Assembly (NCBI GenBank): GCA_045120465.1
Contig: JBGVEW010000035.1
Coordinates: forward strand, 212-64,211
Source of the DNA: Eubacteriales bacterium
GTDB lineage: Bacteria; Bacillota; Clostridia; Oscillospirales; CAG-272
DNA length: 64,000 nt
Reading direction: 5' to 3'
Each line of letters starts with the position of its first letter. The first letter of the stretch is position 1. Positions 1-64,000 of the stretch are shown here, one piece after another. The position numbers and the translations under genes are program-made. Below the pieces are notes generated by a model. That model saw nothing but the letters and a program-made list of their open reading frames with translations. It ran no database searches and was not told where the DNA came from.

Positions 1-58
1 CAACGCTTTTTGAAAGGGGGCTTCGTCAATGACTCAGCCCATACAGCGTCTCCCGCTA

Positions 59-2488
59 TCACTTTACCTTTTTCAGCTTCCAGATGCGCTGTGCGTATTC
101 TTCGATACTGCGGTCGGCGGCAAACTTGCCTGCTGCCGCGATATTGAGGAGCGACATACGGTTCCATCTTGCCTTATCGCGGTAAGCCTCGATCATTGCC
201 TCATGCGTCAGGCGGTAGGACTCAAAGTCCGCCATACACATATAAGGATCTGCCACGCCGTGACCGTTATTGAGGAGATACGACGCGATATCCGCAAAGG
301 ATTCGCCCGCAAAGCCGATAGAAAGCTGATTGATGATCTTGATCAATCGCTCGTTGGAAATATAATAGTTTGCCGCGCTGTAGCCGTTGAGCCAGAGCTG
401 TTCGACCTCGTCTGCCTTCAAACCAAAGATGAACATGTTCTCCTCGCCTGCGGCTTCCTGCATCTCAACGTTTGCACCGTCGAGCGTACCGATGGTGAGC
501 GCTCCGTTGATCATCAGCTTCATGCATCCCGTTCCGCTGGCTTCCTTACCCGCCAAAGAGATCTGTTCGCTGATCTCGGCAGAGGGAACGAGGGCTTCCG
601 CCATGCTGACGCTATAGTTTTCGAGGAACACGACGTTGAGCTTTTCGCGGATCTTGGGGTTTTGCTCAATGTCCTTACCGATCATGCAAAGCAGCTTGAT
701 GATGCGCTTTGCCATATCGTAGCCGGGAGCCGCCTTTGCGCCGAAAATAAAGGTCTGCGGCTGCATATCGAGGTCGGGATTCTCCTTGAGATCCAGGTAA
801 AGTCCAATGATATGGAGCGCGTTGAGAAGCTGTCTCTTATACTCGTGGAGACGCTTGATCTGCACGTCGTAAACCGAATGCGTATCGATCTTTTTGCCGG
901 TCTTTGCGGCAACGAGGTTGGAGAAGCGGATCTTGTTTTCGTGCTTGATGGCACGCATACGCTCCTTAACCGTCTCGTCATCCGCAAACTTTGCAAAGTC
1001 GGAAAGGCGTTCGGGTTGGTGACGGTAATCGGTTCCGATACACTCATCCAAAAGGGCGGCGAGCTTGGGATTGGAATAGCACAGCCAGCGGCGGTGCGCG
1101 ATACCGTTGGTAACGTTATCGAATCGTTCGGGATACATCCGATAAAAGTCCTTGAACGTGGAATCCTTGAGGATGCTCGAATGGAGCTCGGATACGCCGT
1201 TAACCGAGTGCGACGCGATGACCGACAGGTTTGCCATGCGGACCTGTCCGTAGCCGATGACGCTCATGTGCGAAATGCGACCCCAGTTGCCGGGGAACGC
1301 CGTCCATGCCTCGCGGCAGAAGCGCTCGTTGATCTCCTTGACGATGGAATAAATGCGCGGAAGCTTGAGGCGGAACAGATCCTCGTTCCACGTCTCCAGA
1401 GCCTCGGGCATAACGGTATGGTTGGTGTAGGAAACAGTGCGAGTCACGATGCTCCACGCCGCATCCCACGAAAAGAAATAATCGTCAATGAGGATGCGCA
1501 TCAATTCCGGAATGCAGAGCGCGGGATGCGTATCATTGATGTGAATTGCCACCTTGTCGGGCAGGTTATCCAAGCGTCCGTACACCGCCATGTGGTCGCG
1601 GATGATGCTTTGGATGGATGCCGAAACAAGGAAATACTGCTGCGACAGGCGGAGCAGCTTGCCCTCGGTGTGGTTATCCGACGGGTACAAGACCTTGGAA
1701 ATGATCTCCGCGTTGGTGCTCTCCTCCAGTGCTCTGGTGTACTGTCCTTGTGTAAAGAGGCGCATATCGAACTTTTGCGTGTTTCTCGCGCGCCACAAAC
1801 GGAGCTGGCTGACCGCGGTGCTGTCCGCGCCCGAGATCATCATGTCGTAAGGAACTGCCTCGATCTCCTCGCAATCGTCGTAAAGGATCTCGCAGTGTCC
1901 GTCCGATCTCCACTCCTCGCGGATCTTGCCGCCAAAGCGCACCTTATACGTGCGGTCGGTTCTGGGAACGAGCCATACCTCGCCGCCCGGGAGCCAGATG
2001 TCGGGGGTCTCGACCTGAATACCGTCCACGATCATTTGCTTGAACAATCCGTACTCGTAGCAGATCGAAAAGCCCGTTGCGGGATAATCCAGCGACGAAA
2101 GCGAATCCATAAAGCACGCGGCAAGTCTGCCAAGACCGCCGTTGCCAAGCCCTGCGTCGGGTTCGCACTCGTAAAGATCCTCCAGATCAAATCCGAGCTT
2201 TTTCAGTGCCTTTTCATACGCGCCTGCAAGTCCGAGATTGCAAAGGTTGGTTTTGAGCGAGCGTCCAAGCAAAAATTCCATGCACATGTAGTACACGCGC
2301 TTGGCACCTGCCGCGTTGACCTTCTTTTTGTAAGCGGAACGCTTGTCACTTAAAATATTCTTGACCGTGATCGCCGCCGCCTTGTACATCTGGTCGCGCG
2401 ATGCCTCTGCTGCCGTACATCCAAAATGGCGTTGCAGCACGCTCTCCAGCAATTCCTTGACCTCTGCACTGTTGGGATTGTAATTCAT
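59..2488 (-). CDS. glgP: glycogen/maltodextrin phosphorylase (GT35 family)
   Basis: 809-aa ORF with ATG at 2488-2486 and GGAGG about 12 nt upstream. Full-length alpha-glucan phosphorylase pattern, including the PLP-lysine motif EASGTGCMKLMINGA. TGA stop at 61-59. Confidence 0.95.
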   Translation of the reverse strand: MNYNPNSAEVKELLESVLQRHFGCTAAEASRDQMYKAAAITVKNILSDKRSAYKKKVNAAGAKRVYYMCMEFLLGRSLKTNLCNLGLAGAYEKALKKLGFDLEDLYECEPDAGLGNGGLGRLAACFMDSLSSLDYPATGFSICYEYGLFKQMIVDGIQVETPDIWLPGGEVWLVPRTDRTYKVRFGGKIREEWRSDGHCEILYDDCEEIEAVPYDMMISGADSTAVSQLRLWRARNTQKFDMRLFTQGQYTRALEESTNAEIISKVLYPSDNHTEGKLLRLSQQYFLVSASIQSIIRDHMAVYGRLDNLPDKVAIHINDTHPALCIPELMRILIDDYFFSWDAAWSIVTRTVSYTNHTVMPEALETWNEDLFRLKLPRIYSIVKEINERFCREAWTAFPGNWGRISHMSVIGYGQVRMANLSVIASHSVNGVSELHSSILKDSTFKDFYRMYPERFDNVTNGIAHRRWLCYSNPKLAALLDECIGTDYRHQPERLSDFAKFADDETVKERMRAIKHENKIRFSNLVAAKTGKKIDTHSVYDVQIKRLHEYKRQLLNALHIIGLYLDLKENPDLDMQPQTFIFGAKAAPGYDMAKRIIKLLCMIGKDIEQNPKIREKLNVVFLENYSVSMAEALVPSAEISEQISLAGKEASGTGCMKLMINGALTIGTLDGANVEMQEAAGEENMFIFGLKADEVEQLWLNGYSAANYYISNERLIKIINQLSIGFAGESFADIASYLLNNGHGVADPYMCMADFESYRLTHEAMIEAYRDKARWNRMSLLNIAAAGKFAADRSIEEYAQRIWKLKKVK

Positions 2489-2570
2489 AACAAATGAGCC
2501 TCCTTGGTTTTATCGCTCCCCGCCCCTTGCGGGAAGTGTGTGTTGGAATATGGTTTGGGTTTGGGTTTGT

Positions 2571-2712
2571 TTTTTTGGGGAAAACTTTTACCGCCTTTTT
2601 GATAGCCTACCCTCTACGGGAATCGCTCTCATGTCGGTTCCTTTTTTCATGCTCTGCGTGGTTCTTTTCCTCATTTTTCATTCCGCATTTTGCATTTTGC
2701 ATTTTGCATTTT
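2571..2712. repeat. partial copy of intergenic repeat family A (half hairpin plus body)
   Basis: The stretch ttttttggggaaaacttttaccgcctttttgatagcctaccctctacgggaatcgctctca...catgctctgcg aligns with the copies at 4181-4704 and 6336-6920. It lies directly 5' of the glgP start. Confidence 0.6.
2685..2712. repeat. (GCATTTT)x4 heptanucleotide tandem repeat
   Basis: Four perfect consecutive GCATTTT units read directly; they abut and overlap the glgA TAA stop (2713-2711). Confidence 0.85.
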
Positions 2713-4141
2713 AAAGTCCCGCGTACAGTTCGAGGTATTTCTCGGCGGAAGTATTCCACGAAAAATCGGTTTTCATAATTTTGGTAACCAGTTTTTTGCG
2801 CGCCTTGGGGTCATTCCAAAGGGCAATTGCCGCCTCGGTGCGTTCACGAAGCTCGTCAGCGCGGTAATTGGCAAAGGTAAAGCCGTTGCCGTGGATGGTA
2901 TTTCCTTCGGTCCAATAGGGCTTGATGGAATCGTACAAACCGCCCGTTTCGCGCACCACGGGGATGGCACCGTAGCGCGACGCGATCATTTGCGAAAGTC
3001 CGCACGGCTCGCTCTTGGAAGGCATGAGGAAGATATCGGTTGCCGCATAGATGCGCTTGGAAAGGTCACGGTCGTAGGTGATCAGAGCGCGCACCTTTTC
3101 GGGGAACGCCGCTTCCAGGTCGCAAAACAGCTTTTCGTATTTTGCTTCGCCCTTGCCGAGAATCACGAGCTGGACGTCGTTATTTGCAACGATATCCCAA
3201 ATGCACTCCGAAACGATGTCCAGCCCCTTATGGGATGCCAGACGCGTGATCAGGGAGAGCATGGGAACGTCACTCGTTTCGGGGAGTCCGACCTCTTTTT
3301 GCATTGCCTTTTTATTCTTTGCTTTTCCGGCAAGGCGGGTAGGCGTAAAGGGTGCGGCAATGCCGCTCTCCTCGGGATCGTAGTAAGTGTAATCGATTCC
3401 GTTCAGAATTCCCGTCAGCTTGTGCGCGTTGCGAACGAGGCAGGATTCCAACCCGTGTGCGTACTCTGCCGTGGTGATCTCCTCGGCATATCTGGGGCTG
3501 ACCGTACTGACGCGATCGGCACACTCGATTGCCGCCTTCATCAAATTGATGCATCCGCCGTGATCCATCAGGCTATGCTCGTTTTCGCCCATTGCGAACA
3601 CGTCGCCCAAAATTGCAAAATCGTACTGTCCCTGATACTCAATGTTGTGGATGGTGAACGCGGTGCGGATATCGCGGTATCCCTCGCGGTTGCGATAAAT
3701 GCAGTTGAGATACACCACCGACAGTGCCGACTGCCAATCATGCGCGTGCAGCACGTCGGGGTAGTACTGCAAGCGGTTCATCATTTCCAGCACCGCCATG
3801 CAGAAATACGCATATCTCTCACCGTCGTCAAAAAATCCGTACAGTGCGGGACGCTTGAAATAGTATTCGTTATCAATAAAATAGTAAGTGACTCCGTCCT
3901 TCTGCAAGCTATACACGCCGCAATACTGCTGACGCCATGCGAGATCGACGTAAAAAACAGCCTCTTCCTTCATCTGTCGGCGCCACTCGTCCTTCACCGC
4001 CGCGTAAAGCGGAAGCACTACGCGCACGTCAACCTCTCCCGTTTTGGCAAGTGCCGCAGGGAGAGAACCCATCACGTCACCAAGTCCGCCCGTTGCCGCA
4101 AACGGCATCGCCTCGGCTCCTACAAATAAAATCTTCTTCAT
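2711..4141 (-). CDS. glgA: glycogen synthase (starch synthase, GT5)
   Basis: The conserved N-terminus MKKILFVGAEAMPFAATGGLGDVMGSLP (K-x-GGL motif) starts at the ATG at 4141-4139. The 50 codons upstream in the ORF track run through repeat DNA and are rejected. Confidence 0.93.
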   Translation of the reverse strand: MKKILFVGAEAMPFAATGGLGDVMGSLPAALAKTGEVDVRVVLPLYAAVKDEWRRQMKEEAVFYVDLAWRQQYCGVYSLQKDGVTYYFIDNEYYFKRPALYGFFDDGERYAYFCMAVLEMMNRLQYYPDVLHAHDWQSALSVVYLNCIYRNREGYRDIRTAFTIHNIEYQGQYDFAILGDVFAMGENEHSLMDHGGCINLMKAAIECADRVSTVSPRYAEEITTAEYAHGLESCLVRNAHKLTGILNGIDYTYYDPEESGIAAPFTPTRLAGKAKNKKAMQKEVGLPETSDVPMLSLITRLASHKGLDIVSECIWDIVANNDVQLVILGKGEAKYEKLFCDLEAAFPEKVRALITYDRDLSKRIYAATDIFLMPSKSEPCGLSQMIASRYGAIPVVRETGGLYDSIKPYWTEGNTIHGNGFTFANYRADELRERTEAAIALWNDPKARKKLVTKIMKTDFSWNTSAEKYLELYAGL

Positions 4142-4180
4142 TTGGTTTCCTCTTTGTTTGTTTTTTGTTTGTGGCAGAGT

Positions 4181-4704
4181 TTTTTCTTGTTTTTTTCTTG
4201 GAGAACCTTCTTTCAAGAAGGTTCTCCAAACCTCTCCAAGAACTTTTACCGCCTTTTTTGATAGCCTACCCTCTACAAGAATCGCTCTCAAAGTGGTTCC
4301 TCTTTTTCTGCTCTGCGCTTGGCGTTAGCCTTCGTGCAGAACAGACTCGACTTACTTTCTTTCTCTCGCACGCTGACGGAAGAATTGCTCCCGCAAGCGT
4401 TTTGGTACCACCACCCAAAACGCTCACCAAAAGTAGTTTGCTATGTGTTTTTTCTTGGGAAAACTTTTGAAAAAGTTTTCCCAAACCCTTTCAAAACTTT
4501 TATCGCATTTTTGTTGGCGTACCCTCTACGGGAATCTCTCTCATTGCGATTCCTTTTTTCATGCTCTGCGCTTGGCGCAAGCCACCGTGCAGAGCAGACT
4601 CTACTTACTTTCTTTCTCTCGCACGCTGACGGCACAATAGCTCCCGCAAGCGTTTTGGGACCCACGACCACAAAACGCTCCACAAAGTTAGTTTTGCGTG
4701 GGGA
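4181..4704. repeat. two tandem copies (A1, A2) of a ~255-nt structured intergenic repeat, family A
   Basis: Each unit has a T-rich tract, a perfect hairpin (4200-4227 ggagaaccttct/agaaggttctcc; 4457-4482 gggaaaactttt/aaaagttttccc), a conserved body (cttttaccgcc..ccctctac..gctctgcgc..ctttctctcgcacgctgacgg..gctcccgcaagcg) and a second hairpin gcgttttgg..ccaaaacgc. Confidence 0.85.
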
Positions 4705-9904: not shown

Positions 9905-12900
9905 ATGACGATGAAAAAACGAATTTTGGCATGCCTCTTGTGCATCCTTGTGTTGCTCCCCTGTATCACTTCTTTTGCGGATGCCGCGGCGGTATCCGTT
10001 CAAAACAACGAACCGCAAGACTCCCCCACCTTGACCATCGCAAAAACCAATCTGCAATTCGTCGAAAACGTGCAGATCCTTTACGCGGTCAAGCTGGAAG
10101 GAGTAGATGAAACCACAGTTTCCAAAGAGGATTTTAAGCTCCTCTGCTGGGAAACGCCGCAAAGCTCCTACCTGCTCGGAAACGAGAAGCTCGCCCTGAC
10201 CACCTCGGGCGCGATGGAGATCGACGGTGAAAAATACTACGTCTTTGAATACAAGACTCTTTCCGCCAAGCAAATGGCGGACGATATTTACGCAAGAGCC
10301 GTACTGATCCGCAACGGCAACACCTATTACAGCGAGTTATCAAAATACAGCGTTCTGCAATATGCCTACAACAAACTGGGATATACCGCAGAGGGAACGG
10401 AAAGCGAGGAACTCAAAGCATTGCTTATGGATATGTTACGCTACGGCGCATCCGCGCAGAAATACTTCAACTACAAAACCGACCGACTTGCAAGTGACAC
10501 CTTCTATCAGATCACGCTGACCAACGGTCACTTTACCAATGACAACATGAACACCGCGCTCGTACACGCGAAAACAGGTGCCGAGATCACGGCGGCAGAG
10601 GTCAACACCGAGGGCGCGCCCTTTGCGTTCTGGATGAGTGACGCGGGCAAGATCGTTGCGAAGGAACGCACGGTAACCGTCAACCCCACCGAAAACGCCT
10701 TCTACACCGCAGTGTATTCGAGCGAAAAGATCCCCGCCATCTTCTCCGAGGAAGCACTCGACGTCAACCAAATCCCCTGCAAGGTCAATTTTGATCCCGG
10801 GGAGCGCTATTTGCAGAATTATCAATACTTTGCAATGCAGGCAAGCGTGGAAATGACCGCAGGCGGCAGGCTCTGGAGCTGTTGGATCGGCGGCGGTGAC
10901 AACTCGGACGCATACTTGATTGCAACTTACAGTGACGATAAGGGAGAGACGTGGAAAGATATTCAGTTTGTCATCGATCCGCACAACGATGACCTCCCCT
11001 TGGTACGAAACGTACACATCGGCTGCTTCTGGCAGGATCCCTTGGGTAGGCTCTGGCTCTTCTACCAGCAATCTCTTGGCATGTTTGACGGTGAGGGCGC
11101 GAACTTTGCCATCATTTGCGAAAACCCCGATGATGAAAATCCCGTTTGGAGCGAGCCGCAGTATATCAGCGTGGGCGCATCCCTCAAAAAACCCATCGTT
11201 ACGCAAAACGGCGAATGGCTCCTTCCTGTCTCCATCTGGGAGCGCAACCATCCGATCAGTGAGCCGTTGCAAAATCAGCACACCGAGCTGGATGCCATCC
11301 GCGGTGCAAGAGTGTACGCCTCCACCGATTTGGGAGCAACGTGGGAATACCGCGGCGGTGTGGACTTTAGTGACAGACGCTTTAACGAGCACTCCATCGC
11401 AGAGCTGGACGATGGAAGGATCATGATGTACTCCCGTTGCAAGACCGCCATCAAAAAGTCCTATTCCTCGGACGGTGGCAGAACCTGGAGCGCGGAAGAG
11501 ATCGCGTTCCCGCACGTGGACGGACTTGCGATGATCCGCACGCTCCCCTCGGGCAACCTGCTTCTCGTCAAGCACGGTCAAAGCATGACGGAAGCCACCG
11601 AATCCCGCAGCCATCTGACTGCGTTCGTTTCCCGCGATAACGGAGAAACCTGGGAAGGCGGACTTTTACTGGACGGCGCAAACTATATCTCCTACCCCGA
11701 TATCGCCATCGGTTCGGACGGCAAAATCTACGTACAGTACGATCAAGCACGCAACCGCAGCGCACTGATCCTCTTTGCTCGCTTTACCGAGGAAGAGGTT
11801 CTGGCAGGAGCGATCTCAAAGGAGGGCTCCGCACTCCGTCAAACTATCAAGGACACCAACGGCATCAAGGGGCATCCCGTGGTGATGGCGGCAGGCACGC
11901 CGTTTGGAGGTTCGGGAACCTCCACCGACCCCTACACCATCTCCAACGCTGATCAATGGCAATACCTGATTGCACAGGTGGCAAGCGGCAATACGTTTGA
12001 GGGCATGTACCTCTCCCTGACGAGCGACATTGATTTTGGCGGCATTACCCTGCAACCCGTCGGCTTTATTTTGCAGAGCAACCATTATTCGCACCCCTTC
12101 CGCGGCTTCTTCAACGGAAACGATCATACACTCTCCAACTTTACAATCGATGCCCACGATCTGTATTGCCGCGGTCTGTTCGGCTACATGGATCAAGGAA
12201 GCGTTCAAAAGATCACGGTAGATAACGCGCTCATCCGCGGAAGAACCAACGTCGGAGCGATCGTCGGCTCCATTACGGGCGTAGCAGGAAACCGCTCCAA
12301 GGTTCAGCACTGCACGGTTGGAGAAAACGTAACGGTCATCGGTTACCAGCGCGTCGGCGGTGTGATCGGAAATGCCGAAAACTACGTTACCGTTCAGGAT
12401 TGTGTCAACAACGCAACCGTCAAAGCTCCCTTTGCATCCGCAGATGCCGATTTGAACGTTGGCGGAGTGGTGGGATATATCAACAATCGCATCCATATGG
12501 ACCATTGCGTCAACAACGGAACCGTCATTGCGCGCCATGCGGATAAAGCCTACGTTGGCGGTATTACCTCAAACGGCAAAAACTGCACCATTCTCTACTG
12601 CATCAACAACGGAACCGTCATTGCAGACGACTGCGTGGGCGAAATTTGCATCGGCGGTATCGCCGCATGGCAGAGTGACAACCGCTTTGAGGATTGCGCC
12701 AATCACGGAACAGTCCTGGCGCGCGGTCTTTCGGGCATCAACGCGGGCGGCTTGGTCGGATACTACGGAAAGGATGACAGCACGGCAAACTCCATTCTCC
12801 GATCCTATTCTACGGGCGAGGTCACGGTCGAGCATTACGGGCAGACCTCCGAGATCATGGTCGGCGGTCTTGTCGGCAGAGCCTCCGCAAAAGCCGGCAA

Positions 12901-13156
12901 TACGGACTCCTCTATCAAGGATTCGGTCTCTCTCACTGTTCCAACGGTGATCAACGCAACGCGCAAAACCTACGTTGGAAGCTTTATCGGCAAATACGTA
13001 GCGGATTCGATGACCTTTGAGGGCAATCTCGCGGCAGAGGGAACGGCTGTTGGCAGAAGCTCGGCTGTTTCTGACGTGAGCCACCTTTGCACGGTTGACA
13101 AAACCGCGGCAGAAGAGGCTCTGGAAGCCTTAAAACAAGCCATTGAGGCACAATAA
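9905..13156 (+). CDS. secreted BNR/Asp-box (sialidase-fold) protein with C-terminal GLUG-type beta-helix repeats
   Basis: Signal peptide MTMKKRILACLLCILVLLPCITSFADA. Asp-boxes are YSDDKGETW, STDLGATW, SSDGGRTW and SRDNGETW. The C-terminal ~400 aa carries periodic VGG(V/L/I)(V/I)G motifs (GAIVGS, GGVIGN, GGVVGY, GGLVGY, GGLVGR). Confidence 0.8.
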   Translation: MTMKKRILACLLCILVLLPCITSFADAAAVSVQNNEPQDSPTLTIAKTNLQFVENVQILYAVKLEGVDETTVSKEDFKLLCWETPQSSYLLGNEKLALTTSGAMEIDGEKYYVFEYKTLSAKQMADDIYARAVLIRNGNTYYSELSKYSVLQYAYNKLGYTAEGTESEELKALLMDMLRYGASAQKYFNYKTDRLASDTFYQITLTNGHFTNDNMNTALVHAKTGAEITAAEVNTEGAPFAFWMSDAGKIVAKERTVTVNPTENAFYTAVYSSEKIPAIFSEEALDVNQIPCKVNFDPGERYLQNYQYFAMQASVEMTAGGRLWSCWIGGGDNSDAYLIATYSDDKGETWKDIQFVIDPHNDDLPLVRNVHIGCFWQDPLGRLWLFYQQSLGMFDGEGANFAIICENPDDENPVWSEPQYISVGASLKKPIVTQNGEWLLPVSIWERNHPISEPLQNQHTELDAIRGARVYASTDLGATWEYRGGVDFSDRRFNEHSIAELDDGRIMMYSRCKTAIKKSYSSDGGRTWSAEEIAFPHVDGLAMIRTLPSGNLLLVKHGQSMTEATESRSHLTAFVSRDNGETWEGGLLLDGANYISYPDIAIGSDGKIYVQYDQARNRSALILFARFTEEEVLAGAISKEGSALRQTIKDTNGIKGHPVVMAAGTPFGGSGTSTDPYTISNADQWQYLIAQVASGNTFEGMYLSLTSDIDFGGITLQPVGFILQSNHYSHPFRGFFNGNDHTLSNFTIDAHDLYCRGLFGYMDQGSVQKITVDNALIRGRTNVGAIVGSITGVAGNRSKVQHCTVGENVTVIGYQRVGGVIGNAENYVTVQDCVNNATVKAPFASADADLNVGGVVGYINNRIHMDHCVNNGTVIARHADKAYVGGITSNGKNCTILYCINNGTVIADDCVGEICIGGIAAWQSDNRFEDCANHGTVLARGLSGINAGGLVGYYGKDDSTANSILRSYSTGEVTVEHYGQTSEIMVGGLVGRASAKAGNTDSSIKDSVSLTVPTVINATRKTYVGSFIGKYVADSMTFEGNLAAEGTAVGRSSAVSDVSHLCTVDKTAAEEALEALKQAIEAQ

Positions 13157-23979: not shown

Positions 23980-26736
23980 TTACTTGCCCGACTCCGTTGT
24001 ACGAAGCTTGGCAGCAGCTGCGTCCGCTTTTTTCTGCTTGTGCTCTCTGATCAGCTCATGCGGCCACTTGAACTTGAACTTACGCACGGCAATGTCCAAG
24101 AGGAAGAGCACGATGGCCAAGATCAAAAGCGGGATACGGGGATCGTATTCCCTCTTTAACGTTTTTTCGAGATTTTGGAATACGTCCGCAGGGTCGTTGA
24201 TGATAAGTCCTCTGCCGTCGTTTGCCAACAGGGTCATCAGCTCCTCGCCCAAGGGAGTGCGCGTCGGGAACGCGTTATACTCCTCGGAATAGGAAAAGGT
24301 CTTGTAGAAGGACGTATCCGAAAGAAGCACGCCGTTTTCGTCGAACTTCTCGATCGTGACCTCGTAAAGTCCCGCATCCTTGATCTCAAACGAGAATCTG
24401 CGGTTGCCCTCCTGTGCCTTTACGGGAATGCCGCGATTGGCAAGCTCCGCCAAGGAAGCAGACAGAGGCTTTACGGAGACCTCGATACGATGATTTTCAT
24501 CCAGATTGTAAATATTGAGCTGCGTGGTGTAGTTGTCGGTCTTAACGGAATAGTCAAATCCGCCAACCTGTACGTCCTCCTTCGGGAAGATCGAGCGGAC
24601 GATGTTGGTAACGATCGCCTTACCGATCAGGTCCTCAACAAACGTACCCGACCACTCACCGTTCAGGTCACACATAAAGCTACCCACGTTACCCGCGCCG
24701 TATTTCCAATGTGCATAGATCGGAACGTATTTGCCCATCAGGGTAACGACTGCATCCTTTTTGGCAACCGTACCGTAGTAACCGGTCAGAGGCGGGATCG
24801 CATTTTGCGCAATACCTGCCACAACGGTGGTATGCTCCTTAATCTGAGGAATAAACTCCTCACCGTAAGCGATCTCGGGGATCGCTTCCAGTGCCAGATC
24901 CTGCTGCATGACCGTAGGAATGGTCTGGAGCTGGGACTGTGCAACGTTGTAGAACTTACCGCCGCCAAGGGTTGCAAGCTCGGTCATCTTTTCGCGCTTG
25001 CCCGCATCGATATCACCAACCGTAACAACGGACATGGTAATGCCCTTTGCCACGTTGATATCCGTAAAGTCCAGATAACCGACTCCGTCCTCGGTTCTTG
25101 CTTCGTCTCCGGGGTCACCGTCGGATACGATGATAATATGCTTACGCTCGACGTTGGTAATTGCCGAAAGTGCAAGTCCCGCACCCTCGATTGCCTTTGC
25201 GAAGATGGTACCGCCGCTTGCCTCGGTATTGTCGTCCACAGCTCGGATCGCTTCGCGGATCTCATCCCTGCGGGAAACCGGAAGAATCTGCAAGTTTTCG
25301 GTCGCCGCCTCGCTAAAGGAATAGACACCGCAGAAATCACGGTCGCTCAAGGTATCCAGACACGCTTCGGCACCCTCAATCGCCGCGGGAAGCTTACCCA
25401 TGCTCATAGAGCCAGAAGTATCCACAACGATCATCAATGCGATAGGAGGAGTAAAATCCACGGCGTTGATGGGAAGCATCTGCTTGTAGTAAGTGGATTT
25501 TTCCAGATCCACGCGGTTGTATGCGTGGGGCACCAGCGTTCCGTTGACCAGTTCGTTTTTACCGCCCACGGTAAACAAACCGCCGCCAAGGCTGTAAACG
25601 TACTCATTGAGCAGTTCCTCAAAGCCTGCGGGCATATCGCTGTAGGCAATGTTTGCCAAAATGACCTGTTCGTACTCTGCCATCTCCTGAAGCGTACGCG
25701 GGAACATATCCAGCTCCTTTTCCACGCTGAAGGAGGTAACCTTAAAGTTTTCGTTCAGAATTTCCTGAAGCTTTTGCGTCTCGTTTTCATAACGCTCAAG
25801 CAACAGAACGTTTTCGAATTCCTCCAGATTGATGAAGGAATGGTATGCGTTATTCTTGCTTTCGGTATCCTTGGGATGCGCGATCTCAAAGCGAAGCTCG
25901 TGCATACCTCTGGACTCCAGCAGGATGTTTATGGGAACGGTCTGCTCCTCCTGCGAAACGGTGATGGCGGTCGTTCCCAGCTTTTCACCGTTATCGTACA
26001 GGCTCAGCTCCAAATTCTGTTCACCCTTGCCGAAATTGCTTTTCAAAGTCACTTCCGCGGTAAACGCCTCACCGGGAATGACGTGTTGATCGGGCATCTT
26101 AACCGACAGGATCTGCATCTCCTCGGATTCGTTATTGGGATAGTAAACCGTATCCACCATAATGCCGTCGGCGGCAATTCCCTTGATCACGGCGGTAGCC
26201 GCTTGATCGGTTTCGATACCGTCCGAGATCAAAACGATCTTGGCGGATTCGGAATTGGTAAAGAGGCTTGCCGTGTACTCCAAGGCGGTAGCCAGATCGG
26301 TTGCCGTGGTATCGGGATCCTTGGAGGTCAAATAATTTTCATATGCATTCGTGGGGTCGTCCGTCAATTCGGCAACGTAGCTGCAGCCGTATCCGAATTT
26401 GACCACACCGACCTTGTAGTCGGTTCCGCAAATATTGATTACCGTTTGTACGAAATCATCCTTGTCCGCGCGAGTTCCCTCGGAGCTATCCGAAACGTCA
26501 ACCAGCAAAAGGATCTCGTTTTTCGCATTCGGAATCTCGTAGCGGAAGGAAATACCCGCCAAAAGGTTGATCGCAATGACCATAGCAATGCTGTGCAATA
26601 CCATGGAAACGATGCGGTTTCTGGTGCGGCGGTATTTTTTGTTCATCAAAAAATACGGAAGCAGCGTCAGAAGAATCGCCGGAATGATCAACAGCAACAG
26701 CCACGGATGAGTATAATTCAGTTGTAAATTCAGCAT
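23980..26736 (-). CDS. membrane protein with two von Willebrand factor A domains (BatB-like)
   Basis: N-terminal TM helices. MIDAS motifs are LLVDVSDSS and VVDTSGSM. The C-terminal TM anchor is IPLLILAIVLFLLDIAV. AGGAG lies upstream of the ATG at 26736. Confidence 0.85.
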   Translation of the reverse strand: MLNLQLNYTHPWLLLLIIPAILLTLLPYFLMNKKYRRTRNRIVSMVLHSIAMVIAINLLAGISFRYEIPNAKNEILLLVDVSDSSEGTRADKDDFVQTVINICGTDYKVGVVKFGYGCSYVAELTDDPTNAYENYLTSKDPDTTATDLATALEYTASLFTNSESAKIVLISDGIETDQAATAVIKGIAADGIMVDTVYYPNNESEEMQILSVKMPDQHVIPGEAFTAEVTLKSNFGKGEQNLELSLYDNGEKLGTTAITVSQEEQTVPINILLESRGMHELRFEIAHPKDTESKNNAYHSFINLEEFENVLLLERYENETQKLQEILNENFKVTSFSVEKELDMFPRTLQEMAEYEQVILANIAYSDMPAGFEELLNEYVYSLGGGLFTVGGKNELVNGTLVPHAYNRVDLEKSTYYKQMLPINAVDFTPPIALMIVVDTSGSMSMGKLPAAIEGAEACLDTLSDRDFCGVYSFSEAATENLQILPVSRRDEIREAIRAVDDNTEASGGTIFAKAIEGAGLALSAITNVERKHIIIVSDGDPGDEARTEDGVGYLDFTDINVAKGITMSVVTVGDIDAGKREKMTELATLGGGKFYNVAQSQLQTIPTVMQQDLALEAIPEIAYGEEFIPQIKEHTTVVAGIAQNAIPPLTGYYGTVAKKDAVVTLMGKYVPIYAHWKYGAGNVGSFMCDLNGEWSGTFVEDLIGKAIVTNIVRSIFPKEDVQVGGFDYSVKTDNYTTQLNIYNLDENHRIEVSVKPLSASLAELANRGIPVKAQEGNRRFSFEIKDAGLYEVTIEKFDENGVLLSDTSFYKTFSYSEEYNAFPTRTPLGEELMTLLANDGRGLIINDPADVFQNLEKTLKREYDPRIPLLILAIVLFLLDIAVRKFKFKWPHELIREHKQKKADAAAAKLRTTESGK

Positions 26737-26752
26737 CTTGTGTCAGCTCCTG

Positions 26753-30626: not shown

Positions 30627-30698
30627 GATTTTTTCTACCTTACATTATTTATTTTTTTATTTTTTGTTTTGGGGTTATATCATCAATCCATAGGATTG

Positions 30699-45328: not shown

Positions 45329-47863
45329 TTAGTTGGTTTCCTTCAGACTGACTTCCCAGATTCTGCTCAGAGGTCCGTTGTAAGGAGTGAGCTCGCTCTT
45401 GGGAGTGAGGGTCGATTCGTCAATGACGTTGGAGTTGTAGGCAAACAGGTCACTTCTCTGGTAGGTAGGCAGCTCAACCGCCAGCTCCATAACCAGATCC
45501 AAAGCCTGCTTGTAATACTCGATACGCTTCTTTTCATCGAGGGTCTCTCTTGCCTTGTCGATGATATCGGAGAGCTGCTTGATGAGTGCCAGCTCGGTAT
45601 CGTACTTATTACCGTTGTTTGCCTTGATTGCGCGGTAACCCCAGTTTGCGGTAGAGCCCGCGGTGGAGTCCATGTGGTAAACCTGATACATATCAGGGTC
45701 AACGCCCGCTCCCCATGCTGCTGCCCAAACGGTAAGGTCACCGTTGTTGAGCTTGGAGAGCGCGTTGATATCGGTCTTGACCTCAACCTTAAAGCCGTGC
45801 TTATTCAGAATATCCGCAGCCTGCTTGAGGGAGTTGTAAGCGGGGTGGTCGGTAGTATCGCCTGCAATGGTGAAGGTGTACTTACAAATGTCGTTACCCT
45901 TCTGGTAGATACCCTCGGCGTTCTTGGTGTAACCCGCCTGCTTTACCAGTTCCTCGCACTTTGCGCCCGTGGAGTCAAATGCGTAGTACTGACCCTCGAT
46001 GTCCTTAGGATATGCCCAGGATGCCATGGTCATAGGACGGGAGATGGAATAGGAGTAACCAAAGTAGTACTCAACCGCGAGGTTGGTGTTAACCGCGTGC
46101 ATGATCGCACGTCTGACGTTGATGTTGGGAACCTTTTCGGCGTTGATACCGATATAACCGTAACCGTTGGTCATAACGAAGGAGCTGGAGAATCCGTCAC
46201 CCTTCTTTGCCTCAAGGCTATCGATGTTCTCCTGCTTGCAGGCAGGCTCAACGAAGTGAACGCCGCCGGAGTACAGGGTATCGAGCATGAGGTTGGTGGA
46301 AACGACCTGATAGTTGATATACTTGATCTTAACGTCGAACATGAAGTGGCTGTTACGCTCGAAATATACGACGTTGTTTGCCTTGAAGGTACCTGCGCTG
46401 ACTGCGGAGGAGTCGCCGGTACGGGTGGTTGCCTTGTAAGGACCTGCGCCTACGGGAACACCGATCTTGTTGGGGTTCTTAACAACCTCATCCTGGAACT
46501 CGATGCTACCGAATTCCACGCCGAAGTTCTTCTCGTAGTCAAACTTCTTGATCTGTGCCTCGTTGGAGTAGTAGTACATAGGAGCAACGGTAAACGCGAA
46601 GTTCCAGATTGCCTTGGGGTCAACCTCGTTGATCTCAATCTCAAGGACCTCGTTACCCTTGGTTACGCTGCCGTCCTTAGCAAGCGTAGGAACGCCGTAC
46701 TCCACACCGTTAACGGTTACGCTCTCCTTGCGGTTTGCGTAGCGGATACCGGAAATGCTTTCAATTCTGTCCTCATCCTCGATGTTTTCAAAGTATGCCT
46801 GCTTTTCGAGGTAGGAGAAGTAGGTCAACAGCTCGGTAGCGGTTGCCCAGTAGGTGATAACCTCATCTACACGGTTGGGGAAATAGGTGTTGTAAACCGC
46901 GTTGATCGCCTGCTCCTCGGACCAGTTCTTGCACTGCTCCTCGTCAACGCTGTAGTCAAACTTGTATTCCTTCTTGTTCCAGGAAATGAAACCCTCGTTG
47001 TAAAGGAATGCCTCAGAGTCGGTAGTAAGAGTAACCTTCTTGCCGTTCTTATCGGTAAATACGATGTCCTCTGCGGTACCCTTTGCGTAGGTGTAGTCCT
47101 TCTTCAGCTCTTCCTTGAAGTACTTCTTAGCCAGCTCGTAGTCGTTGATGATCGTGCCATACTCGGGAAGCTCGGTCTTGAAGTCGTTCATAACAGCGGT
47201 AAGAGCATTAACCAGTTCATCTTCCTTCAGGCTCTTGCCCTCGTTATCGTCATAAACGATCTCAAGGCAGTCGCGGAGTCTCTGAACACGGTCAGCCGCG
47301 AGCGCGATGAACTGCTCGTCAAAGCTATCCTGCTCGTTTTCGTTCTTACTCTGGGTACGGTACTCATCCAAACCTACGATATCGGTGGAGTAGATGGTTG
47401 CGCTACCGTAGTAAGCGGGGTCAAGATAAACGTAAAGGTTGAACAGAACGTCCTTCATCGTAAGAGGAGAACCGTTGCTGAACTTGAGATTGTTCTTGAG
47501 AACGAAACGGTAAACCGTGGTCTTGGTATTACCCTGCGCATCCTTTTTGGGGATGGCTTCGTAGTCCAGAACGACGCACGCCTCGTCCTTACCGTATGCG
47601 ACCTTACCGTCCTTATCGGAGGAAAGCATCGAGATCTGCGTCATACCGACGATCTGACCGTCGGGACCGGAGGAGGAGTAGAAGGGGTTGAATACGCCGT
47701 CAAGCTCCGAGGTGGAAAGCACCAAACGGGTACTTTCGTTGTCGATAACTGCGCCTGTTCCGCTGGGATCACTCGGGTCGTTTCCGCAGCTCGCAAATAC
47801 TGCGGCAAGCGTTGCGATCGCCAGGATCAGAGCAAGCAGCTTTGTGCTGTTTCTTTTCATCAT
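45329..47863 (-). CDS. family-5 (OppA/DppA-type) ABC substrate-binding lipoprotein, enlarged (844 aa)
   Basis: Lipobox in ..LAAVFASCG and AAGGAG upstream. SBP_bac_5-like core (..GPYK.., ..PDMYQVYH..) with large insertions. Confidence 0.85.
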   Translation of the reverse strand: MMKRNSTKLLALILAIATLAAVFASCGNDPSDPSGTGAVIDNESTRLVLSTSELDGVFNPFYSSSGPDGQIVGMTQISMLSSDKDGKVAYGKDEACVVLDYEAIPKKDAQGNTKTTVYRFVLKNNLKFSNGSPLTMKDVLFNLYVYLDPAYYGSATIYSTDIVGLDEYRTQSKNENEQDSFDEQFIALAADRVQRLRDCLEIVYDDNEGKSLKEDELVNALTAVMNDFKTELPEYGTIINDYELAKKYFKEELKKDYTYAKGTAEDIVFTDKNGKKVTLTTDSEAFLYNEGFISWNKKEYKFDYSVDEEQCKNWSEEQAINAVYNTYFPNRVDEVITYWATATELLTYFSYLEKQAYFENIEDEDRIESISGIRYANRKESVTVNGVEYGVPTLAKDGSVTKGNEVLEIEINEVDPKAIWNFAFTVAPMYYYSNEAQIKKFDYEKNFGVEFGSIEFQDEVVKNPNKIGVPVGAGPYKATTRTGDSSAVSAGTFKANNVVYFERNSHFMFDVKIKYINYQVVSTNLMLDTLYSGGVHFVEPACKQENIDSLEAKKGDGFSSSFVMTNGYGYIGINAEKVPNINVRRAIMHAVNTNLAVEYYFGYSYSISRPMTMASWAYPKDIEGQYYAFDSTGAKCEELVKQAGYTKNAEGIYQKGNDICKYTFTIAGDTTDHPAYNSLKQAADILNKHGFKVEVKTDINALSKLNNGDLTVWAAAWGAGVDPDMYQVYHMDSTAGSTANWGYRAIKANNGNKYDTELALIKQLSDIIDKARETLDEKKRIEYYKQALDLVMELAVELPTYQRSDLFAYNSNVIDESTLTPKSELTPYNGPLSRIWEVSLKETN

Positions 47864-51900: not shown

Positions 51901-54900
51901 TACATCCGTTGAACGCCTCCTGACCCAAGTAGGTCAGATCGTTCTTGAACTCAACGCTCGTCAGCTTGGTGCAGCCCTTGAACGCGCTGTCCGGAACGGT
52001 ATCGCAATAGAGCACGATGCTCTTGATGGGAGTGTTTTCAAACATTTGCTCGGCGATACGGGTCTTTTCGCCAAGTACGACCGTTTCCAGCTTGGAGCAG
52101 TTCGCAAACGCTGCAACGCCGCTGCGGGAAAGGTTGGTCAGGATCGCCTCGCTGATACGCGTTTCTGCAAACGCCTTATCACCGAGAGCATAGATCGAAG
52201 AAAGATCAATGCCGCCCAGATCCTTACAGGTCAAGCTTTCGCACTGGTAGAATGCCTTGTTTGCAATGACGGTAACGTTTTCGAGGTTGATGTTTTCCAA
52301 GACCTCACAGCCCTCGAACGCGCTCTCACTAATGGTCTTACAGCTCTTGGGAAGCGTTACGCTACCAAGCTTATGACAACCGTAGAATGCGAATTTTTCA
52401 ATGGTTTCAACGTCCTCGGGGATCACTACGGAGGTTACCGTATCGTTTCCGAGTGCAGTCTTCTTATCGTCAAAATCGTAGTTTCCGTCCTCGTCCGTTT
52501 CAACCTCTTTCTCGTTATCGAGATCGTAATGGCTGAACGCGAACGCGCCAATCATCATAATACCCTCGTCACCGGGGATCACGACGTCGCCGCCCCAACC
52601 CTTGTAAGCAAGGAGCGTGCGTCCCTCGATCACGAATTCGCTCTTGACCTCAACCGACAGACGAGCCGCCAAAAGCGAGGGCTTACCGTCAATGAGGATC
52701 TGCAGAGTGATTCTTGCCTTACCCTCAGCCTGTGCGGTAACGACACCGTTTTCATCAACGGTTGCCGCCTTGGGATTACTCGTGGTCCACTTCAATTCGT
52801 ATTTATCGGGATCCAGATACCAAGGATCGAGCTGATAGTAAAGCTGGATCTTTTCGGAAGGATAGAATGCAAGACTGGAGCTGCCGCCAAAATAGTTGAT
52901 CGCACCCGTGACTCCGATTTCGGAATAATCGATGTCGGAATTGAAAGCAAACAACGTCTTATAGGAAGTAAATTTCAGATCCTCGACCTGCATCTTGTCG
53001 GGATTTTCCACCACCTGATCACTGACGTTTACAACCAACGTCTTGTAAAGAGGCTTTTCGGTGCCGTCGGTCGGATCGATAAACGTCCAATCCTTACCCG
53101 TAACGGTAATGGTTGCCTGACCTGCCTTACGTGCCTCGATCTGACCGTCCTGAATGGCAACGACCGTTTCATCGGAGGATGCCCAAGTCAGGTTCTGGAG
53201 GTAACCGGTTTCGATCACGTCTGCGTCCTTGCGAGCAAGGAACGTGGTCAAATCAAAGATCTGGTTGATATCCAGAGACAACGCAGAATCAAGGAATTCC
53301 AGCTCGGTGCTCTCGGTTTCGGGGAACGGAACGTAAGCGATACCGGAGTTCATTGCGTAGTCGTCGATGTAGAAGCAAATACCCTCGGGAGTGGAGGAAT
53401 TCTTCACCAGGTCGATGTAATCGGTGATTTCAACCGCAACCTTGGTAACCTTTCCTCTCTCTTCCTGATAGATCGGGATCGGATTGCCGCAAAGCGAGGA
53501 GTAGGTCTTTTTGATCGTGCCGTCCTCGGTGGTCTCACCCTGCGGATCGTCATAAACGATGATGGGGCGCAGAGACATCGCGTAATGGTTATCGTAAACC
53601 ATCAAATCAACGTAGTAGCGATTCTTCTTCATCGCCTTATCGTACTCGGTGCGGAAGGTCGCATCGGTAATGGAGGGTGCCTCGTAGTCGATGTAGAAGG
53701 AGAAGGAGTAAGTATCCTTGGAATTGCGGTTTTCACCGTCCCAGTCGAGCTTTGCGGACATCGTGACCTCAAAACGCTGGTTGTTGTATCCAAATACCTC
53801 ACCCGTCTGGTAATTTGCCATTGCCAAGCGGATCTGTGCGGCGTAGGGATACGGAGAACCGATAAAGTGCGACTTGTAGCAGTTATACTGGGTCTCGGAC
53901 CATACTTCCTCACCCGTAGTCGCGTTTTTGATCGAAATATTCAGCTCCTTCGCGCCGCGCAAAAGTCCGGTAAAGATTCCGTAAATACCGTTAATCGCAT
54001 CCGCGTAGTAAGAAACCGCTGCCTTATCCTCGGTTGCGGGAATCGGCGTGTACTTGCTCTCGTCCATTGCGTAAACGTAGCTGCCGAGAGGAAGCACGTA
54101 GTCGTAATAGTAGCTACCCAGGGGGGTGGTTGCGTAGTAATCCGCCTTGATCTTGTCCTCGTCGTCGATCGCGTTGTTGTGTGCCTCGGTCTCTACCTCG
54201 TAGTAATCAAGGTCGAAAATCGGAGCCTCACCCCAGTCGCCGTAGAAAGCAAGGAAGGGTGCGTTGAGGTCAACGCCGTTTGCATCGGTGCTGTCGAAGG
54301 TCAAAAATCCTTCTACGTACATACCGTTTTTAAAGCTTGCGTTCAGGTAAGACTTATCCGCCGCAGAAAGCGTCAGAGTAACCGTTACCTTTGCGGTCTT
54401 ACCCGCCTCAACCGAAACGACACCGTTTTTGAGGGTACCGTTTTCAACCGAATACTCGGCCGTGTTGGAGAGGATGTATCCCATCTCCGCTACGTACTCG
54501 GGATCGGAGGTGGAAAGCGTCTCGGTCATGGTAACGTTACCGATGGTGTAGCTGAGTGCCTTGTCGGAGATGTTTTTGAGGTTGATGCTCATCGTGTAAA
54601 CGCCGGTACGCTTGGGATCGTCAAAGAGCTCCAGCTTGGTCTTACCGATACCATCTACAAAGAGGTATGCGGGGGTCGTGGTTGCCTTTACGATATCCGC
54701 AATACCCGCTCCCTGCTTTCTGGGGGAGTAGGGATTGCCCTTGTGGTCAAGCGCGATGGTCGCGGTGGACATGCAGAGCTGGTTGACCAGGTCTCTGACC
54801 TGCTCAGGCTTCATCTCGGGATATTTTTCCTTGACGTACTGACGAATCAGGACGGTAATACCGCACATATTGGGGGCTGCCATACTGGTACCGCTCAATT

Positions 54901-56776: not shown

Positions 56777-57253
56777 GCTTTTTTCCTCGCATTTTTGAAT
56801 TTCGCCGCCTCGGCACAATCATTTCGGTCCAATTGTTTGAGGGTTTGAGCGCGTAACTTTCACCCCAATTTTTCCGATATGCCAATGACGACATAAATAT
56901 ACATTAAAGATTATACCACAAGATCCGTATTTTTTCAAGTCCTTTATATATAAATAGAATACATTTTCACTTTGTATCAAATTTTTACGTATTTCATCCA
57001 CCATTTTCGTCGTTTTTTACAAAAATATTTTTTCATTTCCGATGCATGAACCGCAAAAGTATGCACCTCCGCGTCTCTTTCCTGTAAGAAAATGCAAGTT
57101 ATGCACTCGGCACTTGCAAAACGCACCTTCCGATGCATGTAAAAAGAGAACAAAAAAACGGCCCTCTCAAAGAGGCTTTTGAGAGAACCGCTTGTAAAAA
57201 AGCGACGAAAAGCTTTTGGTGGGAATTTGCGTTTTTGATGGGATCAACCCAAG

Positions 57254-59665: not shown

Positions 59666-59670
59666 GGATC

Positions 59671-59885: not shown

Positions 59886-59895
59886 CATAGCAAGT

Positions 59896-59924: not shown

Positions 59925-59929
59925 GCTCT

Positions 59930-60256
59930 TTATCGGTAATACACGTAATACACGATGATGGTGCGCTCGCGTCCGCCGTGCTCCAGATCGGGGGCGGTGA
60001 TCACGACTCCATCCTTGGAAAGCAGTTCCCAAGCCTGCATCTCCTCGATCTTGCATCGCATCAGCACGTCTGCCGATGCAAACACGATCATCTCGTCGTC
60101 ACGGATATTCAATCCCCCGTTTCTGCCGATGACCTCATCCACGTCGTTGATCTTTTCGGTTACGTAGCGGATATGATGATTGCTCATCTGCTTTGCCATC
60201 TCCCAGCGGTATTTTTTACTGTTGGGGTCTTTTTTTCTCGAAAACCAATGAAACAT
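59930..60256 (-). CDS. hypothetical small protein (108 aa)
   Basis: ATG at 60256 with GAGAGGTG upstream; product starts MFHWFSRKKDPNSKKYRWEMAKQ... The longer 227-aa ORF in the track overlaps the methyltransferase gene and is rejected. Confidence 0.6.
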   Translation of the reverse strand: MFHWFSRKKDPNSKKYRWEMAKQMSNHHIRYVTEKINDVDEVIGRNGGLNIRDDEMIVFASADVLMRCKIEEMQAWELLSKDGVVITAPDLEHGGRERTIIVYYVYYR

Positions 60257-60273
60257 CGTCACACCTCTCAAAA

Positions 60274-61467: not shown

Positions 61468-61470
61468 ATC

Positions 61471-62205: not shown

Positions 62206-62215
62206 AGCCTCCTCC

Positions 62216-63295
62216 TTAAAACAGCTCGATCAGTTCCTTCGGGCTCTTGGTAAAATCGTAAATGCTTCCGTCGTTGCGCACCGCAACCAAGTCCTCGATG
62301 CGGCAACCGTATTTGCCCTCTACGTAAATTCCCGGTTCAAAGGTCACCACGTGTCCGCGCTCCAATCTGACGTCCGGCGCGGTTTTGGGAGAGAGATTCG
62401 GTGTTTCGTGTACGTACAGTCCGACACCGTGACCAAGGGAATGCCCAAAGCACCCTTCGTATCCCGCTCCGTTGATCACGTCACGCGCGATGCGGTCAAG
62501 CTCCCGGCAGAACGCCCCCTCCGCCGCCGCTTCCAGCGCGTTTGTCTGCGCAGTCAGAACGGTTTGATAGAGCTTTTTCATATCCGCGTCCGCTTTGCCG
62601 AGGCAAACGGTACGGGTCATATCCGCGCAATAGCCGTCCACGCGTGCGCCGTAGTCCATCGTCAAAAAGCCGCGCTCCAGCTTGCAATGTCTGGGCGTTC
62701 CGTGGGGACGCGAGGAATTGCTTCCCGACACCGCGATGGTATCGAACGCCAAGCCCTCCGCACCGTTTTTGCGCATAAAGTATTCCAGCTCCAAGGCGAC
62801 CTCGATTTCGGTCATATCGGGAGTCAGAACGGAAAGGATATGCGTAAACGCCGCATCGGTAATGCGTTGCGCGCGCTCGATGCAGGCAAGCTCCTCGTCA
62901 TCCTTGTGGATCCGAAGCTGTGAAAAGAGTGCCGACGCACCGCCCGACAGCGTATAGTCCTGCAACAAATTGCGATAGCGCTCAAACTCGGCACAGGACA
63001 GGGAGCGGTCCTCGGTGGCAACCGTACGGCAACCGTTTTCCGCAAGAAGTCCCGAAATACAAGGCATATGTCCCTCGTCGGGCGTCAGAACCGCAAGCTC
63101 TGCGTTCGCCTTTTCGCGCGCCGCTTCGACGTAGCGAAAATCGGTGAGCAGATAGGATGCGCCCCGTGTTACGAGGATCAGACCGTCATGAAATTCAAAG
63201 CCCGAAAGATAACGTTGGTTCGCTCCCTCGGAAACGATGGCGGCATCGTAGCCGTGCTCTGCCAGAAGTGCGCGAAAATCGGATAAACGTGACAT
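62216..63295 (-). CDS. M24-family Xaa-Pro aminopeptidase
   Basis: ATG at 63295 with AAAGGAG upstream. It has the N-terminal creatinase/prolidase domain and the metal-binding region DYGARVDGYCADMTRT..GHSLGHGVGLYVHE..EPGIY. Confidence 0.88.
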   Translation of the reverse strand: MSRLSDFRALLAEHGYDAAIVSEGANQRYLSGFEFHDGLILVTRGASYLLTDFRYVEAAREKANAELAVLTPDEGHMPCISGLLAENGCRTVATEDRSLSCAEFERYRNLLQDYTLSGGASALFSQLRIHKDDEELACIERAQRITDAAFTHILSVLTPDMTEIEVALELEYFMRKNGAEGLAFDTIAVSGSNSSRPHGTPRHCKLERGFLTMDYGARVDGYCADMTRTVCLGKADADMKKLYQTVLTAQTNALEAAAEGAFCRELDRIARDVINGAGYEGCFGHSLGHGVGLYVHETPNLSPKTAPDVRLERGHVVTFEPGIYVEGKYGCRIEDLVAVRNDGSIYDFTKSPKELIELF

Positions 63296-63455
63296 ATAGG
63301 ATCTCCTTTGATTCATTTCTCCCTTCATTATATCACAATTTTTCAAAAAAGTATAGCCCTGTTCGAAAAAATTTTTCTCGCCCCCCTTTTTTGACAAAAT
63401 AAAGAGCTTTCGCAGGGTATAATAAGAGCAAACCGCATACAAAACGGAGGAATTG

Positions 63456-64000
63456 ATGATGCAAACGGAGGTCTATATCGATCTTTACGTCCTGATCAAC
63501 ACCAGCATGAATCTTTTATCTCTGATGATCACCGCCTCTCTCCTGCATCGCAAGGTTTCGCGTCTGCGCTCCTGTCTTGCCGCGCTTCTCGGTGGAATTT
63601 ACGCCGCTGCGGCTCTCCTTTTTGAAATCGAAGGAGCGTTGGGATTTACCCTCGACCTGTTGGCGGGAGGGCTGATGTGTGCCGTGGCGTTTGCGGGCAG
63701 TTCTCTTTCCCTCTTTCGCTTTTTGCAAAGTGCCCTCGTTGAAGTGTTGACCTCGATGATCTTAGGAGGTATCATGACGGCACTCTACAGTCTGCTCAAC
63801 CGCCTCGATCTCCCTTTAGAGGTTTTGGAGGGAGACGGACTATCGGTTTGGCTCTTTTTGCTTCTGAGCCTCGCCGCAGGACTTCTGACCTTGCGCGGCG
63901 GACGCTTTTTCGGGTTTGCGGGGCGCACCAAGAGTGTGACCGTAGAGGTTCGACTGTTTGAAAAGGAGCTCACCCTGCGCGCAATGGTGGATTCGGGAAA
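63456..64000 (+). CDS. spoIIGA: sigma-E processing peptidase SpoIIGA (5' fragment, runs off the window)
   Basis: Not in the ORF track because no stop is reached. ATG at 63456 follows GGAGG. The product MMQTEVYIDLYVLINTSMNLLSLMI... is polytopic and ends in the window with ..LRAMVDSG, the aspartic DSG motif region. Confidence 0.8.
   Translation, partial: MMQTEVYIDLYVLINTSMNLLSLMITASLLHRKVSRLRSCLAALLGGIYAAAALLFEIEGALGFTLDLLAGGLMCAVAFAGSSLSLFRFLQSALVEVLTSMILGGIMTALYSLLNRLDLPLEVLEGDGLSVWLFLLLSLAAGLLTLRGGRFFGFAGRTKSVTVEVRLFEKELTLRAMVDSG

Follow-up and report, generated by a model that had tools for sequence, protein, structure and literature searches.

Long antisense shadow frames in a gut Clostridia genome as a probable by-product of codon-specific avoidance

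Nearly all genes of a 64,000-nucleotide stretch of bacterial DNA, referred to here as the window, are faced on the opposite strand by long, codon-aligned open reading frames (ORFs), the one opposite a giant protease gene reaching 2,633 amino acids. The window is part of a single contig (G000:C35:212-64211) of a 2.59-Mb metagenome-assembled genome (MAG) of an Eubacteriales bacterium (G000; 121 contigs, GC content 50.2%, completeness 95%). An antisense stop in the codon-aligned frame (frame -1) arises solely from a sense TTA, CTA or TCA codon. These three codons belong to a wider set that the genome avoids, most likely through translational selection. We conclude that the shadow ORFs are very probably a non-coding by-product of this codon bias, which is the best explanation of the whole pattern.

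Depletion of three codons and the open antisense frame

Genes were called with a self-written, self-training program in which ORFs of at least 80 amino acids are scored by frame-specific codon models. It yielded 2,007 genes (748,374 codons) for the whole genome, which are the basis of the codon table, and 29 genes (19,070 codons) for the window, 23 of them with at least 300 codons. A preliminary description of the window had paired its main genes with shadow ORFs. The pairs it named were all found in the ORF list, in place and codon-aligned, as checked for six of them from the coordinate residues modulo 3 (Table 1). Its statement that the protease gene is devoid of TTA, CTA and TCA was confirmed (0 in 2,614 codons), and the 'handful' it had allowed for the 2,759-codon gene came down to a single TTA.

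Across the window, the three codons occurred 60 times (32 TTA, 4 CTA and 24 TCA), i.e. at 3.15 per 1000 codons; given the base composition of these 29 genes at each codon position, 18.5 per 1000 would be expected. Among the 23 genes with 300 codons or more, the stop-free run in the aligned antisense frame extended over at least half of the gene in 20, over at least 80% in 13 and over the full length in 6.

The depletion holds genome-wide, though the window represents the genome's extreme. The genome-wide rate was 9.2 per 1000 codons (TTA 4.3, CTA 1.4 and TCA 3.5), about 2.6-fold under the expectation from composition (~24 per 1000), and the median gene had 6.3 per 1000. Large contigs ranged from 3.3 to 18 per 1000, tracking their GC content, and the contig that carries the window was the lowest. 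Two contigs of atypical composition were C64 (GC 46.6%, 15.3 per 1000) and C93 (18.1 per 1000). Within genes, the density of stops was 9.2 per 1000 codons in frame -1, compared with 38-48 in the four other alternative frames. Genome-wide, 58% of the genes of at least 300 codons had a frame -1 run spanning half the gene or more, and 12% were open from end to end. The genome's other giant genes contained 4-8 TTA/CTA/TCA codons each, with 41 in one atypical giant gene.

For comparison we used a 50-kb sample of E. coli K-12 (42 annotated genes, 14,790 codons, regional GC 52%). TTA, CTA and TCA amounted to 19.5 per 1000 codons in this sample, which agrees with the figure of a couple of percent that the preliminary description had quoted for mid-GC bacteria, and the median gene was open in frame -1 over 40% of its length. 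Relative to the sample, the rate was about 2-fold lower in the genome and about 6-fold lower in the window. The contrast with E. coli is quantitative, not qualitative.

We considered the possibility that the window is a foreign island and rejected it, the codon usage of the window being like that of the ribosomal-protein and elongation-factor genes (3.15 vs about 3.7 per 1000). Genes with a low GC content at third codon positions (GC3), which are probably foreign, showed the opposite pattern. Two such genes, with a GC3 of 0.25-0.33 and many TTA, ATA and ACA codons, adjoin the EF-Tu/EF-G/rpoC region outside the window (G000:C111:2758-4156) and were probably acquired recently.

Codon specificity and the likely cause of the avoidance

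Other A-ending codons had been described as freely used. The relative synonymous codon usage (RSCU) over the 2,007 genes bears this out for GCA (1.31), GGA (1.21), CAA (0.94), GAA (0.88) and AAA (0.80); AGA was also common, and GTA to a lesser degree. It does not hold for ATA (0.16), CCA (0.26) and ACA (0.42), which are avoided together with CTA (0.09), TTA (0.28) and TCA (0.35), nor for CGA (0.55), which is also depleted. The further statement that this is no plain GC3 effect stands: the depletion is codon-specific, and GNA codons are abundant.

ATA, CCA and ACA are avoided yet are not complements of stop codons, and they were used as control codons. The per-gene rate of TTA/CTA/TCA correlated with that of ATA+CCA+ACA (Spearman 0.59), as against 0.08 with that of the GNA codons. 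Both giant genes of the window conform to this: the 2,759-codon gene contains TTA 1, CTA 0, TCA 0, ATA 0, CCA 2 and ACA 5, along with GCA 177, GTA 59 and GAA 70, and the protease gene contains TTA 0, CTA 0, TCA 0, ATA 1, CCA 0 and ACA 6, along with GCA 111, GAA 76 and GTA 32. When each gene was conditioned on its own usage of ATA, CCA and ACA, the lower-tail P values of the two giant genes were 7e-4 and 6e-3. Among the 1,742 genes in this analysis, 3 had P<0.001 (1.7 expected) and 12 had P<0.01 (17 expected), i.e. there was no excess of outliers. The idea that the giant genes are special, and with it that of a depletion confined to the three codons, was dropped, as the matched controls cut the signal to the level expected from 1,742 tests. 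With these controls, sense codon usage fully explains why frame -1 is open, without any extra depletion of stop complements.

The avoided class consists of the A-ending codons that begin with A, C or T and have a middle pyrimidine (TTA, CTA, TCA, ATA, CCA and ACA), and the tolerated class of those with an initial G or a middle purine. Avoidance acts per codon, most likely because translation selects against codons that are poorly decoded, and it appears to peak in highly expressed and very long genes. Most genes of the ribosomal-protein cluster, as well as those for EF-Tu, EF-G and RpoC, had 0-1 TTA/CTA/TCA codons and 0-4 control codons; low-GC3 genes that neighbor them contained many of the avoided codons. 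Both codon sets became rarer with increasing gene length, the share of TTA/CTA/TCA among Leu and Ser codons falling from 0.077 to 0.023. As the window would consist mostly of such well-adapted genes, its frame -1 is nearly free of stops. In E. coli, translational codon bias goes along with the level of expression and the length of the gene. The present genome behaves similarly, in that the avoided codons are rarest in the ribosomal-protein, EF-Tu, EF-G and RpoC genes and decrease with length; the avoided set differs, TTA and TCA reaching 10.1 and 5.2 per 1000 in E. coli, compared with 4.3 and 3.5 here.

Several points weigh against this explanation. If the giant genes are compared with a regression on a mixed index of rare codons instead of the matched controls, both fall far below the prediction (P about 2e-6 each), and the verdict that no residue specific to the three codons is left depends on the control codons chosen. 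The agent of the selection would be decoding efficiency or accuracy, as deduced from sequence. In congeners with a lower GC3, ATA, ACA and TCA rise and TTA, CTA and CCA stay near zero (glgP orthologues); the six-codon class describes the G000 genome and is no fixed rule of the clade. Furthermore, the codon table depends on a simple, self-made gene caller, and the Pfam spot-check of its calls, described below, covered 17 genes only.

A purely mutational or oligonucleotide-context bias (avoidance of TpA and CTAG, GC pressure) with no codon selection is the best of the alternatives, though an improbable one. It agrees with the fact that genes with a higher GC3 contain fewer of the three codons (rho -0.53) and that their rate follows GC content across contigs and relatives. 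TpA (0.63 of expectation) and CTA/TAG (0.31-0.36) were short both genome-wide and in intergenic DNA, a general shortage that helps to make TTA and CTA rare and adds a non-coding component to their avoidance. Yet TCA/TGA was at expectation (observed/expected 1.06 genome-wide and 0.99 in intergenic DNA), and in phase with the codons TCA was found at only 3.5 per 1000, compared with 28 in phase 2 (8-fold more) and 12.6 in the remaining phase. Taking the three trinucleotides together, the off-phase rates were 11-28 per 1000, except for CTA in one phase (4.8), all above the in-phase rates. A mutational bias also does not fit with a GC3 (60%) that exceeds the intergenic GC content (42%), with the abundance of GCA, GGA and GAA, or with the finding that the strongest avoidance is in ribosomal-protein and elongation-factor genes. 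The restriction of the TCA depletion to the codon phase indicates that mutation or context alone, one of the causes proposed in the preliminary description, does not suffice.

Slightly less probable still is a decoding limit of the clade's tRNAs with U at position 34 (U34), e.g. an unusual or missing U34 modification in this Oscillospiraceae-type genus, that would all but exclude A from position 3 in the pyrimidine-middle boxes (TTN, CTN, TCN, CCN, ACN and ATN) beyond any bias linked to expression. Separately, and with the same low probability, one or a few of the many shadows of at least 1,000 amino acids might be translated.

Outright loss or great scarcity of the U34 tRNAs for TTA, CTA and TCA, which would force these codons out of use, was another of the causes initially proposed; we regard it as very unlikely. 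It could find support in the fact that, of the three cognates, just tRNA-Leu(UAA) was among the 30 tRNA genes assembled in G000, tRNA-Leu(UAG) and tRNA-Ser(UGA) not being among them. However, tRNAs for Ala, Asn, Asp, Cys, Ile and Phe are likewise lacking from the assembly, so the absence of these two is uninformative. We inventoried three congeners: G011 has tRNA-Leu(UAA), tRNA-Leu(UAG) and tRNA-Ser(UGA), and G015 and G016 both have tRNA-Leu(UAA) and tRNA-Leu(UAG). Since all three cognate genes exist in the genus, tRNA gene loss is not the cause. In addition, TTA, CTA and TCA are still used 3,223, 1,035 and 2,615 times genome-wide, and CCA and ACA are equally avoided despite the presence of tRNA-Pro(UGG) and tRNA-Thr(UGU) in G000. 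A low abundance of tRNAs, unlike their loss, would be compatible with codon bias under translational selection as the origin of the shadow ORFs.

Relatives were also compared. The close relatives identified through the glgP locus are MAGs obtained from ruminant and human guts and entered under the names Oscillospiraceae, Eubacteriales or Clostridia. Across 63 loci from related species, each 10 kb or longer (GC 44-61%), TTA/CTA/TCA ranged from 1.2 to 19 per 1000 codons, falling with rising GC content; eight genomes belonging to other families of the order had 1.5-35.5 per 1000. Many members of the clade, though not all, thus make little use of the three codons.

The use of ATA varied widely among close relatives. 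Within the genus, the roughly 807 codons of glgP included between 0 and 27 ATA, and several of the order's other families reached 27-49 per 1000, among them locus L154, which has a GC3 of 0.85. The loci in this comparison were L032, L039, L073 and L076 for the glgP orthologues and L151, L152, L154, L157 and L158 for the order-level relatives. A tRNA-Ile(UAU) was considered as the basis of the high ATA use in some congeners; in G054, a high-ATA congener, it was not found among the 32 tRNA genes read (of 38 matches), which did include tRNAs with a CAU anticodon.

Domains, homologues and constraint in the shadow frames

The preliminary description had rejected the shadow ORFs as coding, and our results support this. 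On the sense strand, Pfam domains were found in all seven window genes tested. We also took ten random genes without TTA, CTA or TCA from elsewhere in the genome, among them those for PfkB, MetRS, BipA and a GH31 enzyme; nine matched Pfam on the strand that had been called, and the shadow strand gave no match in any of them, which validates the strand choices behind the codon table. In all, none of the 17 shadow translations (7 from the window and 10 from elsewhere in the genome) matched a Pfam family.

We then compared the shadow frames between orthologues. Those of glgP (77-98% amino acid identity) had 0-18 stops in the antisense frame. The 20 orthologues that aligned without gaps served to assess constraint: they had 0-11 antisense stops, and the amino acid identity averaged 91% in the sense frame and 60% in the aligned antisense frame. 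Differences per site were 0.083, 0.048 and 0.401 at sense positions 1, 2 and 3, i.e. the third positions varied 5-8 times more than the other two. For the protease, the orthologue with 77% identity had 4 antisense stops (TCA) and a longest open antisense run of 1,261 codons, and that with 57% identity had 15 stops and a run of 818 codons. The glgP and protease shadow frames are not conserved and diverge like non-coding sequence; these shadows are neither maintained across relatives nor constrained, as a functional antisense gene would be.

The two closest protease orthologues (G005:C21:17703-25403 and G009:C151:18241-26052) each carry one in-frame stop (TGA and TAA, respectively). They could be pseudogenes, split genes or products of assembly errors.

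When the 2,633-amino-acid shadow was searched against 5.8 billion proteins, a single match was obtained, P0001, which has 1,499 amino acids and is 41% identical. P0001 itself has no match in Pfam. It is encoded on scaffold_1486 of ENA ERZ28653953, where it faces an uncalled ORF of 1,772 amino acids with the domains Peptidase_S8, PA, fn3_5, Big_2 and LRR_5; the only relative of the shadow in the database is another shadow ORF, annotated as a gene.

The last of the causes initially proposed, selection on the antisense frame, according to which some or all shadows are translated overlapping genes or serve another function in this frame, has the lowest probability of all and can be set aside: although there are claims of antisense overlapping genes for Pseudomonas aeruginosa and E. 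coli O157:H7 (PMC8850804, PMC9927249) and some long alternative-frame ORFs are said to exceed model expectation (Mir et al., PMC3454372), the control codons are as depleted as the stop complements, the nearest orthologues of glgP and the protease have broken shadow frames, the glgP substitutions and identities follow the sense frame, and neither Pfam nor the protein search with the 2,633-amino-acid shadow yielded a genuine homologue. The shadow ORFs would instead be non-coding mirror images of the real genes.

Features of the window, annotation and earlier work

The coordinates of the genes and of their shadows are given in Table 1. The two giant genes, both on the minus strand, are predicted to encode surface proteins with BspA-type LRR_5 repeats, 12 matched stretches in the protein from 31974-40253 and 8 in that from 48974-56818. 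The latter has an N-terminal S8 subtilase domain with a PA insert, as well as fn3_5 and Big_2. This protease was found in 15 of the 41 genus genomes searched (G000 counted, and many of them incomplete), with identities of 29-77%. A run of minus-strand genes at 23980-31844, all with long shadows, includes the VWA gene, confirmed by Pfam, and a gene that the preliminary description had called MoxR. The run looks like a Bat/aerotolerance-type operon, of which the Pfam search covered the VWA gene.

Table 1. Genes of the window with their codon-aligned shadow ORFs, and the corresponding pair in ENA ERZ28653953
Feature	Position	Strand	Observations
glgP (glycogen phosphorylase), real gene	59..2488	-	Pfam Phosphorylase E=2.6e-301; TTA/CTA/TCA = 1 in 809 codons
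Shadow of glgP, 774 aa	29..2353	+	Codon-aligned; no Pfam match
glgA (starch/glycogen synthase), real gene	2711..4291	-	Pfam Glyco_transf_5 E=1.8e-77
Shadow of glgA, 479 aa	2690..4129	+	No Pfam match
BNR/sialidase-like gene	9905..13156	+	Pfam BNR_2; 7 TTA/CTA/TCA codons, so that the shadow is in pieces (10436-11614, 11816-12538, others)
VWA-domain gene	23980..26736	-	Pfam VWA_2 and VWA
Shadow of VWA gene, 850 aa	24175..26727	+	No Pfam match
Giant surface-protein gene, 2,759 codons	31974..40253	-	Pfam LRR_5 x12, Flg_new x4
Shadow of giant LRR gene, 2,301 aa	33357..40262	+	No Pfam match
OppA-like solute-binding protein gene	45329..47863	-	Pfam SBP_bac_5; 0 TTA/CTA/TCA in 844 codons
Shadow of OppA-like gene, 746 aa	45674..47914	+	No Pfam match
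Giant S8 protease gene, 2,614 codons	48974..56818	-	Pfam S8/PA/fn3_5/Big_2/LRR_5
Shadow of protease gene, 2,633 aa	48947..56848	+	No Pfam match
Real protease ORF, 1,772 aa	L160:2635-7953	-	Uncalled in the ERZ28653953 annotation
Mis-called shadow P0001, 1,499 aa	L160:3001-7500	+	Called in the ERZ28653953 annotation

That codon usage gives rise to shadow ORFs in frame -1 has been known since the 1990s, and no new mechanism is involved here. Mir et al. 2012 (PMC3454372) modeled frame -1 ORFs from codon usage and discussed the work of Merino et al. 1994 (NAR), who had described long ORFs in this frame that codon usage brings about; Silke 1997 (Gene), which they list, attributes most long antisense frames to biased codon usage in its title. 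Like the shadow ORFs of these authors, those described here are codon-aligned, stop-free frames opposite real genes that result from the rarity of TTA, CTA and TCA, have no homologues and owe their length to the codon content of the mirrored gene. Unlike the textbook shadow ORFs of GC-rich genomes, they occur at a GC content of 50%, and their cause is a codon-specific rule, by which a third-position A is tolerated if the codon begins with G or has a middle purine, and is avoided in all other cases. The shadow of 2,633 amino acids is unusually large for this GC content, yet it lies in the upper tail of the lengths found in this genome. Both mildly unusual traits, the mid-range GC content and the size of the largest shadow, follow from the codon rule. 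The antisense genes of Pseudomonas aeruginosa (PMC8850804) and E. coli O157:H7 (PMC9927249) are similar in being long ORFs antisense within annotated genes. They are reported to rest on Ribo-seq or purifying-selection evidence for particular ORFs, whereas the glgP and protease shadows studied here display neither conservation nor constraint.

These observations provide a clear example of codon bias, rather than high GC content, yielding very long shadow ORFs in a genome with 50% GC. In this clade of gut Clostridia, both ordinary genes (glgP, metG, bipA) and giant surface-protein genes bear full-length antisense ORFs. As such ORFs are common, gene callers that rely on length or are weakly trained can err on the strand. 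The warning to this effect in the preliminary description has a real counterpart in the public metagenome annotation ERZ28653953. The main cost is a practical one: a false protein of 1,499 amino acids now stands in the databases where an S8 protease should have been entered.

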